From IMG/VR virus record IMGVR_UViG_3300044568_000638, positions 1 to 62,808 of that record: a stretch of 62,808 bases of DNA, one strand, 5' to 3'. The first letter of the stretch is position 1, and each line of letters opens with the position of its first letter. The DNA comes from a virus. Lineage: Duplodnaviria > Caudoviricetes. Below are positions 26,416-57,528 of the stretch, piece after piece. The notes under the pieces are model-generated. The model had not been told where the DNA came from and did not search any database. It worked only from the letters and a program-made list of their open reading frames with translations. The position numbers and the translations under genes are program-made.

Positions 26416-26587
26416 TACTATTTTCTAAATATTTTTCATTGTCGCTAAAATAAATTCCGTAGATTTCTATTGCTTTTTTATATTTTTCTTCAGCGTCCGC
26501 AAACCTAGATTTGGTGCGGCTCCTCCATATAGCTGTTGCTGTATCGAGTAGAATGCAGCATTGGTCGAATGCGTTATCAGTGTTCAT
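26402..26587 (-). CDS. Hypothetical protein
   Basis: Overlaps dnaB stop. Confidence 0.5.
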   Translation of the reverse strand: MNTDNAFDQCCILLDTATAIWRSRTKSRFADAEEKYKKAIEIYGIYFSDNEKYLENSIDPF

Positions 26588-34450: not shown

Positions 34451-34762
34451 CTATTGATTGACAGATGGGCATGATTGCGAAGATGGGAAGGATTGGAGTT
34501 GTCTGCCGATTGTTTTTGCGTTGCTGTTTGCATCGGAAAGGGTCATTTTCTCCTTAAAATAAAAACCTTTGCAAAATGCCGTTATTGCCAAGTCTAATTC
34601 TCTCGCTGTCACGTGGCAATGTGTCATGACGTGAGACCCATCGAGCATGACAGAATAGCCACGACCATTGCCATGACATTGGCTGGAAAGCTGAAAGCGA
34701 ACGCCTGTCACGTTGTAAATGTATTCCATGCGTCCGATGAGTTCGTTTTTTGTGATTTTCAT
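34451..34762 (-). CDS. Hypothetical protein
   Basis: A-rich leader. Confidence 0.55.
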   Translation of the reverse strand: MKITKNELIGRMEYIYNVTGVRFQLSSQCHGNGRGYSVMLDGSHVMTHCHVTARELDLAITAFCKGFYFKEKMTLSDANSNAKTIGRQLQSFPSSQSCPSVNQ

Positions 34763-34786
34763 AATGTATTTATTTTTTTGTTTTTA

Positions 34787-35005
34787 TTAATAGTTTGAGA
34801 TTAATTGCATGAATCGCTCGCGTGTTTTCGCTGGTGTACCCTGTGGATGCGCTACCCACAAAGACCGCCCTGTGGATTTCACAAAGCGGGAGGGTTTACC
34901 TCCCCCACATTTTACCCATTGCCCACATTGCAGTTTGATTTGACCCGATAGGATTGCGGACTGGATTGAATGATTCCACAGATCGAGAGTAGGAAGGTAT
35001 TTCAT
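34787..35005 (-). CDS. Hypothetical protein
   Basis: Y.PT.DLW...LQ.GQWV.CG. Confidence 0.6.
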   Translation of the reverse strand: MKYLPTLDLWNHSIQSAILSGQIKLQCGQWVKCGGGKPSRFVKSTGRSLWVAHPQGTPAKTRERFMQLISNY

Positions 35006-35029
35006 AAGATGTATTTTTTTGATTTGGTT

Positions 35030-35245
35030 TTATTCTTCAATGGATGATTCAACGCATTCGTCACAATAGCCGCCCTCATTCAAGACGCGAACAGGATATT
35101 TAGTGCGGCATTCTGTGCATTTGATTTCAAAGCCACTAATGCGCTCGTCTGCACACATTGAAGCAATACCGATAGGAAGCAAACCGCCATCCACAGACAG
35201 AAAACGTTCGCCAGTTGTTTTATTTATGAGTGATTTGATTTTCAT
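35030..35245 (-). CDS. Small Zn-finger protein, first gene of early arm
   Basis: CxxC...CxxC. Confidence 0.55.
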   Translation of the reverse strand: MKIKSLINKTTGERFLSVDGGLLPIGIASMCADERISGFEIKCTECRTKYPVRVLNEGGYCDECVESSIEE

Positions 35246-35290
35246 TGATGATTTGTTTTGACGAGAGAGTGATTTCGCTCATCTGGTAAA

Positions 35291-35318
35291 ACAATACCAC
35301 GCCAACGCTCATCACCAA
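35291..35318 (-). promoter_or_regulatory. Putative early promoter
   Basis: TTGGTG-N16-TATTGT with TGn. Confidence 0.4.
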
Positions 35319-35346
35319 GATATTTTTTCAATTATTTTTACGCTCG

Positions 35347-35413
35347 CACAAGCGCATAAACACAAGCGCAAACGATACAGGCGACAGCAGAGCCGCATAA
35401 ACACAAGCGCAAA
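35347..35413. repeat. 20-bp direct repeat CGCATAAACACAAGCGCAAA
   Basis: 35353-35372 and 35394-35413, partial third copy at 35347. Confidence 0.85.
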
Positions 35414-35741
35414 TATTTTTCACGCATTAAAAAATAAAAAAGAAAAAGATTGACACCCGCAAACCCGCACCAATGCTCGATCTGCTGACTACAAGTGATT
35501 TCAATTTATTGAAAGAGCGCATCAATATTGATCAATTTACACCATCGAATGAAAAAACGTTTTGACGCAAGATGAAATCCAATGACGATTGGATGAAATC
35601 GGAATTAATACATATGAGAGAGAAAAGCGACGAACAAGCGAGAAGGACGAGAGAGAATCCAGCGAAGAGAGACGCAACACACGTTCATTGCGTAGCTAAT
35701 TTTAACCACCCGTTTTTTTTAGTGTCAAGATGTTTCGCACC

Positions 35742-36325: not shown

Positions 36326-37441
36326 ATGAGATTCCACATTCTAGGATTACCGCACACTGTAACAAGTAAAGATTTTAACGCCTGTGCCTACACTGCAAAG
36401 GTTTTAAAATTCGGAAAGATGATGACAAGCCGAGGACACGAAGTCATCCACTATGGGCATGAAGATTCCGACCTCCAATGCACAGAGCACGTTAGCGTTT
36501 TAACAAACGATGACTTCTCTAAAAGCTACGGCTCGCACGATTGGCGCAAGACATTCTTTAAATTTGATATCGGCGATCACGCATATCAGACGTTTTACGC
36601 AAACGCCATTCGTGAAGTAGGAAGACGCAAACAGAAAAACGATTTCATCCTGCCATTTTGGGGAAGCGGAGTACGCCCGATCTGTGATGCTCATCAAGAT
36701 TTGATTTGCGTGGAACCCGGGATTGGATACGCAGGAGGACACTGGGCGCGATGGAAGGTGTGGGAAAGCTACGCCATTTATCACGCATATTGCGGGATGC
36801 AAGCTGTCGGAAATTGCCAGCAGGATAACTATAGCGTGGTGATCCCAAACTATTTCGATCCCGCTGATTTCACCTTCCAATCCGAAAAGGAAAACTATTT
36901 CCTCTATCTGGGCAGGGTTTACAGCGGGAAAGGCGTTGACATTGCAATCCAAGCCACGGAACGAGCGGGAGTGAAGCTAGTGATTGCAGGACAGAAGGAA
37001 GAAGGCTACAAGCTACCGCCCCACGTTGAATATGTAGGATACGCCGACACGGAAACCCGCAGAAAGCTAATGGCAAACGCCAAAGCATCTTTCCTGCCCT
37101 CGCAATATGTGGAGCCGTTCGGTGGTGTGCAGATTGAAAATTTGCTTTCAGGAACTCCGACAATCACGACAGACTGGGGGAGCTTCGCAGAAAACAACCT
37201 CCACGGCATTACAGGCTACCGATGCCGAACGATGGGAGACTTCGTTGATGCAATCCACGCTGTCGACCGCATACGCCCCGAGAATTGCCAAGCTTTCGGA
37301 TTGAATTTTACGCTCGAACGTGTCGCGCCGATGTACGAGAAATATTTCTCCGATGTTCTGGACGTTTACAACGGGGCAGGATGGTATGCAGACGGAAATG
37401 GCATTGACGCAATGACACGTTACTTCCCAGCGATTGACTAG
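36326..37441 (+). CDS. GT-B (GT4-like) glycosyltransferase
   Basis: GHEV, YLGR....KG, EPFG.V.IE. Confidence 0.88.
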   Translation: MRFHILGLPHTVTSKDFNACAYTAKVLKFGKMMTSRGHEVIHYGHEDSDLQCTEHVSVLTNDDFSKSYGSHDWRKTFFKFDIGDHAYQTFYANAIREVGRRKQKNDFILPFWGSGVRPICDAHQDLICVEPGIGYAGGHWARWKVWESYAIYHAYCGMQAVGNCQQDNYSVVIPNYFDPADFTFQSEKENYFLYLGRVYSGKGVDIAIQATERAGVKLVIAGQKEEGYKLPPHVEYVGYADTETRRKLMANAKASFLPSQYVEPFGGVQIENLLSGTPTITTDWGSFAENNLHGITGYRCRTMGDFVDAIHAVDRIRPENCQAFGLNFTLERVAPMYEKYFSDVLDVYNGAGWYADGNGIDAMTRYFPAID

Positions 37442-39244: not shown

Positions 39245-39408
39245 ATACACTGGAACATTACATAGAGTATAAGCGACTTAACCCAGTTAAGGTGATGAAC
39301 GCTTTGCAGAACAACGGGATTATTTCGGACGAGTGTATCTTTCCTGATGATGTGAGAGATTCGGGGCAAGCTGTTTACTGGTTGGAGGATCATTTATTCG
39401 ACATATGA
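39241..39408 (+). CDS. Hypothetical protein
   Basis: ATGA overlaps at both ends. Confidence 0.6.
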   Translation: MNTLEHYIEYKRLNPVKVMNALQNNGIISDECIFPDDVRDSGQAVYWLEDHLFDI

Positions 39409-40091: not shown

Positions 40092-40349
40092 ATGAAAGCA
40101 ACAATTGAATATCAACTACCCGAAGAAGAACACGACATGAAATATGCGTTGGCAGGGGTTGACGCATTGCTAGTGTTGGATGACATTAGCAACGAGATAA
40201 GGAGTTATTTAAAGTATGGAACTGGCGAATTACGACAGTTTGTAACAGAAGAAGGGAAGGAATGCCCTGCTTGTAGTGAGACTCTTGAAATGGTTACGGT
40301 TTGGATTTGGGAGAGACGCAGAGAAAGGAATCTTCCTGACTTAATTTGA
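40092..40349 (+). CDS. Conserved phage hypothetical protein
   Basis: MKAT.EY.LPEE...R..LKY. Confidence 0.7.
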   Translation: MKATIEYQLPEEEHDMKYALAGVDALLVLDDISNEIRSYLKYGTGELRQFVTEEGKECPACSETLEMVTVWIWERRRERNLPDLI

Positions 40350-50394: not shown

Positions 50395-50970
50395 ATGAAA
50401 CACAAGATTTACTCTTATTACGAAAGCATTCAGACGTTGCCTCAAGCAGAGCAATTCGCTTGTGCTAATTGGTGGAAGACATCGTGGGAAAAAAATGGAT
50501 GGGATTGCGTGATGCTAAACAAGTCCCACGTTGGAGCATCCAATCTCCACACAAAACTCGTTTCAAAGCTAGGGAAAGTTCTCCATATACTTCCTGACAA
50601 CTTGCGAGGTTATTATCCACAGCTAGTCGCTCGTTATCTTCGCTGGTGCGGTCTTCACGCCGCTGGTGGTGGGTGGATGTCTGATTACGATGTCGTTAAT
50701 CTTGGATTTACTCCATCTGACGCTATTCCTTATCAAGGTGAGTTAAACATGATAACTGATCGTCCGTGCTATCTCTTTTATGCAAGTCAAGAAAATTGTG
50801 CAGCGGCTATTCACAAGTTTATCTCGGAAGAATTCATCCTTGATGGATTGTTGAAAAAAGAGTCCGATATTCTCAACATAAAAGATAGACTATCTGCTAT
50901 CAGTGATAAAGTTCGTCACATTGATAAAAGTGACATTCCTAAGTCAGAAGTGATGGCATCTTTGATGTAA
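50395..50970 (+). CDS. GT-A DxD (GT32-like) glycosyltransferase
   Basis: SW...GW, R......GG.MSDYD. Confidence 0.6.
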   Translation: MKHKIYSYYESIQTLPQAEQFACANWWKTSWEKNGWDCVMLNKSHVGASNLHTKLVSKLGKVLHILPDNLRGYYPQLVARYLRWCGLHAAGGGWMSDYDVVNLGFTPSDAIPYQGELNMITDRPCYLFYASQENCAAAIHKFISEEFILDGLLKKESDILNIKDRLSAISDKVRHIDKSDIPKSEVMASLM

Positions 50971-50974
50971 GTTA

Positions 50975-51436
50975 TACAATGCTTACTTGGTGGTGAGTTC
51001 GGTGCATAGCAGATCCCACATAATGGGATACTGCTAAAAATACACGATGCTTTCTCGTATGGAGCCGTTCGTATGCTTTTATGAATCACTCGGCCAGAGG
51101 TCGTCCTTTGCCTAGCCTTACTTTAGTTTACACCTTTCGGTGAGAGCCAGTTTGATTCGCAGACCTCTTCCTTTCGGAAGAAGCTATTAAGTTGGTAGTC
51201 TGTTACCCCTCCCAACGCCTCTCCTTCACACGGGAGTCCTTTTCAGGTTTGTTCCGCAGTCATGGGATAGAACCATGCCGTGCTACGCTCATCTTATTTT
51301 AGGGCTACTTTTGGGAACTGCCGTGAAGCTTCATACAAAAGGAAAAACCCGCCTTGATATTCACAGTATCGAGACGGGTTATTTTGCTGGAGAGTAAAAT
51401 TGTTTCGCCTGAATCCTGTGAAAATTCAAGTAAGAT
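50975..51436 (-). ncRNA. Candidate large structured ncRNA
   Basis: No long ORF; many hairpins, three with GAAA tetraloops on the minus strand; upstream promoter. Confidence 0.6.
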
Positions 51437-51442
51437 GTTAGA

Positions 51443-51531
51443 AATATTGCATTGTTTTTTTAACAGGTCAAATGTTTTTTTCATCGTGACACAATTATTT
51501 TTTCTATGTCATGGAATGTTTTTTGTTGACA
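51443..51531. promoter_or_regulatory. Divergent promoters
   Basis: Minus: TTGACC (51466-51471) N17 AATATT; plus: TTGACA at 51526 with poor -10. Confidence 0.5.
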
Positions 51532-51559
51532 TATCCGTGAATATATCGCAGTTCTAAAT

Positions 51560-51784
51560 TCACTTCGGCAGATAGGTTCCGTATACCTATGACTCCGTGG
51601 AAGTCACAGAATCCACAAACAGGCCGTATTAACAAGCCCAACGTGCCGGGGCGAACAAACAAGAAAATTGTGCAAAATTGCAATGCGATTCCATGCACAC
51701 TTGAATGTCGCCCAATAGATCTTCTAAAGGGTCGGTTCAAGCAGAACAAACCTAAACAAACAAACAAAACAGAAAACAAATATT
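51560..51784 (+). promoter_or_regulatory. Structured 5' leader of capsid gene
   Basis: Nested stems, possible pseudoknot, A/C-rich tract before ATG. Confidence 0.55.
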
Positions 51785-52984
51785 ATGGCTCAAGAATGTA
51801 TCCCACTAGCGACAATTCAAAATTTCGCTTCTAAAGACGTAAATCGTATCATCGGTCAGATCGCTAAGGTCTTGGCTCGCAAATCCCCATACATCAACTC
51901 GATTGATGGTGGAACCCTTCCATCCGTTTCGGACGTTGTTCGTAGCGTGGTTGAGGAAATGGCAGTTCCTGCCGCAAGCCTCGCTGCTCCTACCTTCGTT
52001 AACGACACGGGTCTTTGTGGTGTCGGTGCAACCCCTGACGTTGTTGGCTCGACTGAGTATCAGTTTCAACTCCAGACCCTCCGTGGTGCTGGCCCTCGCG
52101 TTTGTGTAAAACAAGCTCGCACCGCCTTTAAGGGTTCCTACCTCCAAGCTCAAGTTTCTCTTGAGAAAACAATCCTTCAGATCATCAATGCTGACATCCG
52201 TTATCAATACTTGATTCAGTCTGGTATCAAATACGTTGTCAACAGCACATTCTCGTTTGGAAATAACCTCACGGGTGATATGCAGCAGATCAACACCCAG
52301 TTCGCCGCGCATCTCCCCGATGCACAGATGAACTTCAAAACCCTCTATCGTATTGGCACGTTCCTCCGCGAAGAGATGCTTGCAGAACCTTTCGCATCGA
52401 AAGATGGAGAGTTCTTCCAAGTTCTTGCTTCCGCTGATCAGATCGAAGCCTTCCGTAACGATGCAGACGTAAAAGAAGACTTGCTCTATCTTACCGCTGG
52501 ATCGTTCAAATTGGGTGATGAGTCCATTTCTGGCTATCAGTTTATGGGTTATCGTGGTTTTGCTTTCGGTATCGACCAACAGCCACTTCGCGCAAGCGGT
52601 TTCGACGGCAGCGGCAACCTCGTCCTCGTAAACCCAATCGTCAGCACCGCTGTTACGAATGGTTTTGCCCAACGCCGCAACCCAGCTTGGGTAGCTGCTG
52701 AGTATGAAGTCATGTTCGTTATCGGTGGTGAAGCATTCAAACGTCTTGTGCCTGAACAATACGTTGGCGAAGGAACCTTCCGTTTCGCTCCTCAACTCGC
52801 TATGGGTGAGCTGGAGTGGACGTATTTCCGGGACAACGATTGCAATCTTTATGGTGATTTCGGTCAGCATATTTATCAAATCCAACGCGCTATTCAGCCA
52901 ATCCGCCCACAGAACGTGTGCGCCATTGTCTACAAGCGTTGCCCATTTGATGGCAATCCCCTTCCTTGTTCAACTGAACTGTAA
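51785..52984 (+). CDS. Major capsid protein
   Basis: 399 aa, strong codon bias, follows scaffold, own leader and downstream hairpin. Confidence 0.8.
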   Translation: MAQECIPLATIQNFASKDVNRIIGQIAKVLARKSPYINSIDGGTLPSVSDVVRSVVEEMAVPAASLAAPTFVNDTGLCGVGATPDVVGSTEYQFQLQTLRGAGPRVCVKQARTAFKGSYLQAQVSLEKTILQIINADIRYQYLIQSGIKYVVNSTFSFGNNLTGDMQQINTQFAAHLPDAQMNFKTLYRIGTFLREEMLAEPFASKDGEFFQVLASADQIEAFRNDADVKEDLLYLTAGSFKLGDESISGYQFMGYRGFAFGIDQQPLRASGFDGSGNLVLVNPIVSTAVTNGFAQRRNPAWVAAEYEVMFVIGGEAFKRLVPEQYVGEGTFRFAPQLAMGELEWTYFRDNDCNLYGDFGQHIYQIQRAIQPIRPQNVCAIVYKRCPFDGNPLPCSTEL

Positions 52985-54255: not shown

Positions 54256-54846
54256 ATGGCTAACCCAATCATAGTCCCTAAAAAAAGCACAATTGCTGCA
54301 CGGGTTCCTGCAAACGCAGACCTTGCATCTGGCGAGATTTGCATAAATCACGCAGATAAAAAACTTTATGCCAAGCATCCATCGACGGGTGCAATCCAAG
54401 AAATTGGTGGTATGTCCGTGCATTCTCACGACGAAATTTATTCCCCTGATAGCAGTCAGGTTTTAGAACTGCAAAACAACGGAAACCTCACCATAACGGC
54501 AGGAGGTACTACAAAAACTTTCACGCTTCCTAGTTCATCTGGAACTATAGCAACATTGGGTGACATTACTGCAAGTGTTGCTGGAGTTACTTCACTTAAT
54601 ACAAGAACTGGTGCAGTTACAATCGACAAGACTGATGTTGGTCTTGGAAATGTGGATAACACCTCGGATGCTAATAAACCAATTTCAACTGCTACACAGA
54701 CTGCTTTAAACGGCAAGATTGGTAGCAACATAAGCGGAGCAACAGGAGCAACTGCCTTGACTAACATGATGCAAATCACATTAGCTGGGTACAACGCACT
54801 TGGTGTTAGCATTAATTCTAACACAGTTTACATAATTGTAGGATGA
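54256..54846 (+). CDS. Fibre connector protein
   Basis: L..GEI.IN, VTS.N..TG.V, DVGLGNVDNTSD..KP.STA, NTVYIIVG. Confidence 0.7.
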   Translation: MANPIIVPKKSTIAARVPANADLASGEICINHADKKLYAKHPSTGAIQEIGGMSVHSHDEIYSPDSSQVLELQNNGNLTITAGGTTKTFTLPSSSGTIATLGDITASVAGVTSLNTRTGAVTIDKTDVGLGNVDNTSDANKPISTATQTALNGKIGSNISGATGATALTNMMQITLAGYNALGVSINSNTVYIIVG

Positions 54847-55709
54847 TTTTAACTAATTCCAGTGCGGCAAATGTAGGCGCAAGCAATGTAACTGCAATTG
54901 CATCTGCAACGGCATCCTTCCGTCAACTCATGTGCTATTTAAGCACGACTATCTCCACCGCATTGACAGGCACAAGAGGGCTAATTAAAAACGGGGTTGG
55001 TCAATTAACTCTATCTGGAGTATGCAATTATACTGGGCCAACGCAAATTAACGCTGGAACGCTTGCCGTTACAGGCGCATCAACTCTCAACGGAGTTATT
55101 AGCGGAGCAGGAACATTAAGAAAAACTGGAACGGCAGTTTTAACAATAGGTGGGAATAATACTTACTCTGGAGGAACATCGTTTGTTTCATCTGGGTTAG
55201 CTGGATTGATAGAATACAGCTCAAATAATGCTTTTGGGACAGGACTCTTTACTCTCTCTAACGCCGCAGGACGAATTGATTCGGGGGGTAGTGTAACCCT
55301 ACCTAATGACTTTCAATTAAATACTGCACTTCAGATTCGCACTCTTGGAGGAAACACAATAACTTTTACTGGCAATATTGCAGGGACTGGAAATGTCAGT
55401 AAAACAGGAAATGGGACTATTGTCCTGTCGGGAACATTAACCTACACAGGGCAAACAATTATTACAACGGGCTTTTTGCGAGCGTTCAAAACAACTGGAG
55501 CATCAACCGCGACCGCAACATTTAACGCGACTGGCTCATTCATTACTGTTTCGTTCAATGTTTCACCTCCGTCTGGTGTTACAACATTTCGCTTCTTTCA
55601 AGGTTCAACATCAGGCACTTGGGGCGTAGGAACCCTTACAGGAGTTCCAGTTGGAACAACAGCAACCTATAATTCAACAAACTCAACCCTCTCTGTAACA
55701 GTCCCATGA
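54843..55709 (+). CDS. Adhesin with autotransporter-associated beta-strand repeats
   Basis: Three K.G.G.L.L.G..TY.G.T repeats. Confidence 0.75.
   Translation: MILTNSSAANVGASNVTAIASATASFRQLMCYLSTTISTALTGTRGLIKNGVGQLTLSGVCNYTGPTQINAGTLAVTGASTLNGVISGAGTLRKTGTAVLTIGGNNTYSGGTSFVSSGLAGLIEYSSNNAFGTGLFTLSNAAGRIDSGGSVTLPNDFQLNTALQIRTLGGNTITFTGNIAGTGNVSKTGNGTIVLSGTLTYTGQTIITTGFLRAFKTTGASTATATFNATGSFITVSFNVSPPSGVTTFRFFQGSTSGTWGVGTLTGVPVGTTATYNSTNSTLSVTVP

Positions 55710-55953: not shown

Positions 55954-57528
<1,575 letters not shown>

Follow-up and report, generated by a model that had tools for sequence, protein, structure and literature searches.

Positions 50972-51471 on the minus strand of IMGVR_UViG_3300044568_000638, a complete virus record of 62,808 nucleotides (nt) that was analysed as a whole and is called the window here, appear to form one unit, a promoter followed by a structured non-coding RNA gene of ~465 nt. 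In the direction of transcription the unit comprises a sigma-70-type promoter, a leader hairpin (h1), a variable linker, a terminator-like hairpin (h2) with a run of five U (U5), a core of ~300 nt, a 3' hairpin and a tail (Table 1). We would file this RNA as a new family within the known kind of large ornate phage RNAs of unknown function. A preliminary description of the same DNA had placed a large structured non-coding RNA on this strand at 50975-51345; the element is there, and it extends ~95 nt further in the 5' direction, to ~51437. The 5' module with h1, h2 and their pairing loops, the family of relatives, the alternative cores and a second genomic setting had no place in that account.

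The unit lies in an 814-nt gap between two plus-strand open reading frames (ORFs), 50395..50970 (191 amino acids, aa) and 51785..52984 (399 aa). Loci were fetched around these two flanking proteins and compared with the gap, and pattern scans then added further copies, with yields of 11, 12 and 38 stretches and of 43 more from metagenomes. After pooling, 71 distinct cassettes were available, 62 of them full-length with at least 430 nt downstream: 32 carry the core type of the window (type A), 27 type B, two type C and one another core (L157). A further core type is present in L140, which was not compared with L157. All relatives come from lake, river or freshwater-sediment data, and copies of 50978-51300 are 81-99% identical in phages whose 191-aa protein is only ~50% identical.

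Covariation among these copies carries the case for a folded RNA. Across the 32 full-length type A copies, aligned with MAFFT and not fitted to a covariance model, 96.2% of the cells are paired, compared with 90.8% after shuffling (none of 500 shuffles reached the observed value), and compensatory change occurs in 27 of 112 pairs, compared with 8-14 in controls with slid partners. For the core, 28 distinct copies gave 97.8% paired cells versus 93.4% in shuffles, again with 0/500 reaching the observed level, and compensatory change in 15/71 pairs (slid controls, 2-6). RNAalifold predicted 95 pairs from 12 copies, 15 of them with compensatory change, and many invariant U.G pairs. A covariance model named R1, which is not to be confused with the repeat R1 below, was built from a 302-column alignment of the 300-nt core; it found 12 type A copies in 96 sources and 34 in 37, and never matched types B-D beyond their common 5' part. 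Furthermore, the three tetraloops vary within GNRA only (GAAA/GUAA/GAGA, GAAA/GCAA), and unpaired core bases are as conserved as stems (mean pairwise difference 0.114 and 0.129, with 0.476 in the leader linker), which points to tertiary contacts or a bound partner. Together with the G.U asymmetry and the conserved promoter described below, these data bear out the proposal of a large structured RNA.

The expectation that the sequence would fold better than its shuffles did not hold: the folding energy of the window is not below that of shuffled sequences (z -0.98 on the minus strand, -2.15 on the plus strand), so that the case for a structured RNA rests on the comparative data. The assignment to the minus strand, which the preliminary description had based on GNRA loops and G-U pairs, follows from the excess of G.U over A.C cells in the type A alignment (159 versus 9) and from tetraloops that change only within GNRA; in addition, the consensus energy is -102.7 on the minus and -85.6 on the plus strand. 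An element acting at the DNA level (an origin, a packaging or a recombination site), or a plus-strand RNA within the late transcript, would accommodate the slightly better single-sequence folding of that strand and the late transcript that must cross the region; it would also turn the invariant U.G pairs into A.C and the GNRA loops into UUUC, and the block has no repeats elsewhere in the genome, which leaves this explanation extremely improbable.

Nine helices had been listed in the preliminary description, and six of them agree with the covariation-supported model: CCU-GAAA-AGG, CUUCUUCC-GAAA-GGAAGAGG (6-7 of 8 pairs covary), CACC-GAAA-GGUG, CAUGG/CCAUG, the 3' hairpin UAGCAG.AUCCCA/UGGGAU.CUGCUA, and CUCC/GGAG, which is invariant, so that its register is open. 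The other three do not hold, since AUACGA/UCGUGU is paired in 74.5% of cells compared with 74.1% in shuffles and has no compensatory change, and in CAGAC/GUCUG and GGCCG/CGGCU relatives change one side only and the same bases take part in other helices that covary. The CAUGG hairpin (CAUGG-UUCUAUC-CCAUG, 51261-51277, minus strand) combines the invariant GGUUCUAUCC with a covarying closing pair and stem; with its 5-bp stem and its 7-nt loop carrying U at position 1 and A at position 5, it presumably resembles the T-arm or T-loop motif of tRNA. Within the block common to all core types, GCAG (51318-51321) pairs with CUGC (51159-51162) in 100% of cells and is nearly invariant. This block (51304-51322) had also been considered as a phage-specific promoter, a reading rejected because the genome contains no second copy and some of its bases belong to a helix.

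The absence of a long ORF had been noted correctly, as none exceeds 91 aa on either strand of the 814 nt scanned. The small ORFs of the gap showed no protein conservation, with tblastn matches scattered over several frames and both strands, and the cassette alignment contains insertions and deletions that are not multiples of three. Small ORFs starting at repeat R1 were rejected as candidates, their start, length and frame being inconsistent between copies.

The comparison with known RNA families, for which ROOL and GOLLD had been suggested, was made with Rfam 15. At gathering scores there were no matches in the whole window, and at E up to 10 the region 50700-51900 gave chance-level matches to snoRNAs and sRNAs only. 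Seven loci holding core types A-D yielded only tRNAs, and a type B copy at E up to 1 only noise. The unmatched families include ROOL, GOLLD, OLE, raiA, HEARO, pRNA, tmRNA, 6S and riboswitches.

Table 1 Features of the RNA unit in the window, in the direction of transcription
Feature	Position	Strand	Remarks
Sigma-70-type promoter	51443..51471	-	-35 TTGACC (51471-51466), 17-nt spacer, -10 AATATT (51448-51443); from a consensus scan
Probable RNA 5' end, CAUCUU (P0 5' strand)	51432..51437	-	placed by its position relative to the -10
Leader hairpin h1 (UGAAU/AUUCA)	51410..51428	-	stem 85.6% paired, 1 covarying pair; loop UUCACAG 51416-51422
Terminator-like hairpin h2 (ACCCGUCUCGAUA...UAUCAAGGCGGGU) with U5	51343..51379	-	U5 at 51343-51347; loop CUGUGAA 51360-51366
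Type A core	51048..51346	-	~12 helices; three GNRA-capped hairpins and the invariant GGUUCUAUCC hairpin; covariance model R1 scores 362 bits on the window
P1 closing helix, 5' strand (UUUUGUAUG.AGCU)	51327..51340	-	follows the U run immediately; partner strand 51053-51066; 13 pairs, 2 compensatory, 91% paired
Block GGCAGUUCCCAAAAGUAGC	51304..51322	-	common to core types A-D; unique in the window
P0 3' strand AAGAUG	51290..51295	-	pairs with CAUCUU 51432..51437
Repeat R1 (CGAGAAAGCAUCGUGUAU)	51040..51057	-	first bases are part of the P1 3' strand; imperfectly repeated as R2
3' hairpin UAGCAG.AUCCCA/UGGGAU.CUGCUA	51007..51036	-	11 pairs, 91.2% paired, 1 compensatory
Tail with repeat R2 (CAAGUAAGCAUUGUAUAA)	50972..50989	-	conservation stops here; the convergent ORF 50395..50970 has its stop codon 2 nt away

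The 5' module and its complementary loops

The promoter that had been noticed upstream (TTGACC-17-AATATT) is kept as TTGACN-16/17-nAnnnT in 55 of 56 distinct upstream regions of relatives, and in 47 of the relatives' upstream regions the -10 ends 5 nt before the CAU of CAUCUU. When the full-length alignment was scanned blindly for covarying helices, two further contacts of the 5' module emerged, P0 and a pairing between the loops of h1 and h2. P0 is paired in 100% of cells, and two of its six pairs covary, in three sequences of one lineage. The leader is part of the long RNA, given that P1 begins at the U run and that P0 joins the 5' end to bases immediately ahead of the core; P0 crosses P1 and is therefore a pseudoknot or an alternative fold.

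The h2 stem is G+C-rich, with 12 pairs (97.7% paired, -15.4 kcal/mol), and contains an invariant U.G pair, which would be A.C on the plus strand; its U5 is kept in all copies. In the window the stem has one C.A mismatch, and a simple consensus scan for terminators did not list it. The loop UUCACAG of h1 and the loop CUGUGAA of h2 are paired in 94.9% of cells, with compensatory change in 7/7 pairs by program count. The two loops are complementary over 6-8 nt, and a Watson-Crick match of at least 6 nt is found in 59 of 60 cassettes of all types, among which 25 distinct h2 loop sequences occur; non-cognate loop combinations reach a perfect complement of at least 6 nt in only 153 of 3,368 cases. 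Loop bases differ between copies as much as the unconstrained linker (0.488 versus 0.476), copy pairs with cores at least 97% identical have different loop sequences in 27 of 43 cases, and ten of the loop sequences are found combined with type A as well as type B cores. Because its loop pairs with h1 and its U run adjoins, and lies partly in, P1, h2 is built into the RNA despite its terminator look.

Both h1 and h2 are present in the nested minimum-energy structure of 21 of the 25 distinct leaders. In the other four, that of the window included (-23.5 kcal/mol), an extended antiterminator-like fold, which pairs the 5' strand and loop of h1 with the loop and 3' strand of h2, wins by ~1 kcal/mol. 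As far as the alignment can tell, the covariation between the loops fits a kissing complex and an antiterminator alike, within or between molecules.

If contacts between molecules were formed, copies joined by their h1 and h2 loops could build a ring or cage that either works with the capsid or portal, as for the pRNA of phage phi29, or consists of RNA only, like those of ROOL and GOLLD. For such a packaging or assembly RNA speak the loops themselves, which stay complementary through all their changes of sequence, and the position of the window copy in the packaging and head region; covarying loop pairings of ROOL and GOLLD proved to be bridges between molecules, as PMC12286853 describes. Pairing within one molecule explains the covariation equally well and is allowed by a linker of 25-45 nt, the other genomic setting lies beside genes of nucleotide metabolism and replication, and Rfam gave no match to pRNA, ROOL or GOLLD in a window that holds no tRNA genes. 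A packaging or assembly function is very unlikely on this balance.

The pRNA of phage phi29 is an RNA of 120-174 nt that is read from the genome end, binds the portal and has a loop pairing of 4 bp. It likewise contains two complementary loops that co-vary in one molecule, but the pairing in the present RNA is longer (6-8 bp), one of its loops caps a terminator-like hairpin and the Rfam model does not match.

At the other end of the RNA, the signal of the R1/R2 repeat is modest, with a cognate local score of 6.9 versus 5.6 for non-cognate pairs, 17% of which reach the cognate median. Tentatively, R2 may pair with the leader: CAAGUAAG and the leader segment CUUACUUG are paired in 87.9% of cells versus 82.7% in shuffles, with one covarying position. 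A search for a pairing of R1 or R2 with the strand of the P7 hairpin or another fixed partner found no consistent site. Five copies (L106, L107, L150, L153 and L169) have another ORF between the 191-aa gene and the RNA, and in these the RNA tail is followed on its 3' side by a long inverted repeat (CUACAC..UUAUCAU..AUGAUAA..GUGUAG) that is absent in the window; it is possibly a two-way terminator between convergent units.

Exchangeable cores and two genomic settings

At least four unrelated core types are found on common 5' and 3' modules. Types A-D have in common the 5' part, consisting of promoter, leader, h2 and the block up to ...AAGAUG, and the 3' module, consisting of ...AUACG(R)(R)A..., the hairpin and a tail repeating the sequence after AUACG; the swapped central part sits between the two. 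Type B has a fold of its own with compensatory change in 30 of 86 predicted pairs, and a distant homology of the A and B cores was unsupported, as covariance model R1 finds only type A. The nearest relatives of the window, L083, L005 and L006, with a 191-aa protein 95% and a 399-aa protein 98% identical, carry type B exactly at the position of type A in the window, and cores are exchanged between near-identical phages. Moreover, the 68,965-nt contig 3300042938_001476 has type A at its start (L115:1-4583) and type B at its end (L132) with near-identical flanks, which we interpret as the two ends of a circularly permuted assembly containing two alleles of one population.

In the first setting, found in the window and its clade, the 191-aa and 399-aa genes flank the cassette, which is antisense to both and has no co-oriented ORF downstream. 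Taking the window (50971-51784) and the same gap in loci L002-L081 together, the site is a cargo hot-spot at which the distance between the two genes ranges from 232 to 3,506 nt; relatives lacking the cassette have only 232-280 nt there, and others hold one to four plus-strand ORFs of ~190-360 aa instead. In the second setting, which covers 13 of 14 further loci, the cassette and a gene of 288-306 aa are divergently oriented. Downstream on the cassette strand, 12 of these loci have homologues of the glycosyltransferase or the dCMP deaminase of the window and, in some cases, an HNH-like ORF. The spacing to the downstream gene runs from overlap, in L128, L129 and L141, where R2 overlaps the ribosome-binding site and start codon of the dCMP-deaminase gene, up to ~1 kb in L138.

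Because of this second setting, a cis-acting leader or attenuator stays a serious rival, although we regard it as rather unlikely. In such a leader, downstream transcription or translation would be set by h2 together with alternative pairings among leader, loops and R1/R2, and the window copy would be displaced or re-used, for example as an antisense RNA against the late genes that it faces. The layout of a promoter, ~75 nt and then a hairpin with U5 is what one would expect of it, as are the co-oriented ORFs in 12 of 14 further loci (glycosyltransferase, dCMP deaminase, HNH-like), the position of R2 over the translation start in the three loci named and the antiterminator-like minimum-energy fold of the window leader. 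Against it stand the window clade, where every module is strongly constrained yet no co-oriented gene follows, and the order of the parts, with a large conserved core after the terminator, whereas a sensor would precede it. The downstream genes and their spacing also vary, and most distinct leaders (21/25) fold as h1 and h2, not as an antiterminator. Known riboswitches and cis leaders are similar in being long conserved structured RNAs upstream of genes, with alternative pairings conceivable here too, but differ in having no terminator first and large fold after; moreover, the genes downstream of the present RNA are not conserved, its window clade has none, and no Rfam model matched.

HNH-endonuclease-like ORFs directly follow the RNA in three loci (L126 ~2160-2754, L146 ~2264-2858 and L135 2217-2969, in coordinates of the sub-stretches), and are free-standing insertions resembling homing endonucleases. 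They could also be taken as the homing partners of a self-splicing intron, a ribozyme remnant or another mobile RNA, to which the complex core with its GNRA loops and the presence of the cassette at two different genomic sites would be suited. We give hardly any weight to this explanation, as no model of a group I or II intron, RNase P or a small ribozyme matched at E up to 10, the window offers no minus-strand exons to join, the RNA has its own promoter and most copies are without a nearby endonuclease.

Possible function and relation to known systems

The unit is complete and under strong constraint where no gene follows, and for this reason the best reading is that of a stand-alone phage RNA gene of a new family acting in trans, which the comparisons make probable. 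Exchangeable cores on a common chassis, co-existing alleles and a site otherwise occupied by accessory genes resemble what is seen for accessory, anti-defence and host-takeover genes. The host RNA polymerase would transcribe the cassette early. Part of the transcripts would end at the U run, giving a form of ~95 nt, and the remainder would read through into the full fold of ~465 nt, in which the U run is locked in the closing helix. The full RNA would then act in trans as an accessory, 'moron'-like product, with the core as its business end binding a partner from the host, the phage or a competitor, so that alternative cores would confer alternative specificities, and with the paired loops holding the 5' domain together or joining copies. 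Within this stand-alone reading, a role in anti-defence or host takeover is a tentative proposal, and RNA-only self-assembly is unlikely.

Several points weigh against a stand-alone RNA acting in trans. Besides the single-sequence folding energies given above, the strand and ends of the RNA are placed by sequence comparison, and a hairpin with U5 located ~75 nt from the start is expected to terminate a large part of the transcripts, so that the long form would depend on read-through. In the second setting the RNA precedes co-oriented genes, and R2 over the dCMP-deaminase start in L128, L129 and L141 is consistent with a cis-regulatory leader. Neither the search of cultured phages nor the h2 scan of bacterial genomes gave a clue to the host. 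A nucleotide search of the gap in 50,697 cultured-phage records had no match, and the h2 pattern, scanned in one genome per bacterial species, occurred at only two sites without the rest of the cassette. These two sites, each a hairpin with a T run (L147 and L148), lie in a metagenome-assembled genome of Thiotrichaceae and in a Veillonella genome; since two unrelated bacterial sites share the pattern, h2 is of an ordinary terminator type.

To our knowledge, large intricately folded RNAs of bacteria and phages are rare, and most of those known, such as ROOL, GOLLD, OLE and raiA, are without an assigned function. The present family adds features not described for these four, namely a promoter of its own, a built-in terminator look-alike, complementary loops that change as fast as unconstrained sequence, and whole cores swapped between near-identical phages. 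With ROOL and GOLLD it has in common that it is phage-borne, several hundred nt long and rich in helices, with GNRA loops, covarying loop pairings and no known protein partner or function. It differs from them in lacking an Rfam match, in its smaller size (~465 nt), in a window without tRNA genes, and in its promoter, internal terminator-like hairpin and exchange of whole cores between types. GOLLD was discovered in lake data and comprises a conserved and a variable region (PMC12286853). The full-text literature covered contains no description of this ~465-nt RNA. A 2023 survey of IMG/VR reported 8,495 candidates of 29-151 nt, listed in its supplements (PMC10690425), and, as far as the accessible part of this source allows a statement, individual hairpins may be among them and the ~465-nt architecture not.

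RNA-controlled premature termination is the basis of the CI RNA immunity of P4, of P1 c4 and of the attenuation of pT181 and pIP501, where the regulators are shorter than 150 nt and act by simple antisense pairing. These systems share with the present RNA a constitutive promoter, an early terminator in the leader, loop-loop contacts and target-like repeats, here R1/R2. In addition, type-specific sequences could define specificity groups, and replication-related genes lie downstream in the second setting. Unlike in these systems, both partners are on one strand of one transcript, a core of ~300 nt resembling a tertiary structure follows, and the action in trans is putative. At the late promoter of lambda a nearby terminator gives a short '6S' transcript unless Q acts, and nut-type sites serve antitermination. 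Here, too, a strong promoter is followed within ~100 nt by a hairpin resembling an intrinsic terminator, with a conserved leader and a hairpin before it; the difference is that no antiterminator protein was identified and that a structured RNA, with nothing coding in the window, lies downstream.

The 7-nt loops might further serve as a lineage 'barcode' between molecules, either in a lineage-specific assembly of RNA only or by the finished RNA kissing the nascent leader of a co-infecting relative and firing its early terminator, a scheme that we hold to be quite unlikely. If true, kissing of the nascent leader would amount to an RNA-based system of self/non-self recognition or superinfection immunity among lytic phages of lakes, similar to the incompatibility of plasmids or the immunity of P4, with the exchangeable cores as different effector heads. 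More generally, if loops or cores prove to be specificity determinants, the family would represent an RNA counterpart of accessory, anti-defence or immunity genes in phage-host and phage-phage conflict in lakes.

Neighbouring genes, RNA-library contigs and other features of the window

PHROGs assigned the small terminase at 35730, a glycosyltransferase at 36326, a dCMP deaminase at 39405 and the large terminase at 40346, and a DnaB-like helicase at 26577 on the minus strand. The gap thus lies in the packaging and head part of a long plus-strand gene block. The placement in a 'head module' was reasonable in so far as the element lies between the terminase genes and virion genes; the 399-aa neighbour is unconfirmed as a capsid protein, and is presumed to be one as a guess from its position and conservation. 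It is 85-98% identical in 154 viral contigs and abundant in RNA-library contigs. Neither flanking protein had a match in PHROGs or Pfam, and for the 399-aa protein a PDB sequence search returned only noise, a search against cultured-phage data had no match and an AlphaFold model from a 10-sequence alignment reached a pLDDT of 31. In the 191-aa protein the DxD-like stretch SDYDV recalls, as we assume, glycosyltransferases.

Four RNA-library contig sets were compared at 90% likeness; their contigs carry no strand or end information and cannot show absence, so that the lack of any contig on 50816-51301 is evidence in neither direction. One contig of 874 nt covers h2 of an L128-like copy and extends more than 250 nt beyond it in both directions, and its loose ends read like an L128-type leader and 5' block; with DNA carry-over possible, it is a weak hint of the RNA. 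Other RNA-library contigs begin at 51489, 51578 and 51631 and run rightwards into the 399-aa gene. They fall in a leader of ~200-300 nt of the presumed capsid gene (51489-51784, plus strand) that is conserved at the nucleotide level; with TTGACA at 51526, it may be a structured 5' untranslated region with a strong promoter.

A second ORF-poor stretch of ~970 nt (34762-35730, no ORF above 72 aa) separates the block of minus-strand genes from the small-terminase gene; the cassette has no copy in it. On the plus strand, 54843-55709 and 55954-57528 encode one protein with three passenger-associated-transport repeats (PATR) and another with collagen triple-helix repeats and a hint of a phage tail-tip domain; both are probably fibre or adhesin proteins.

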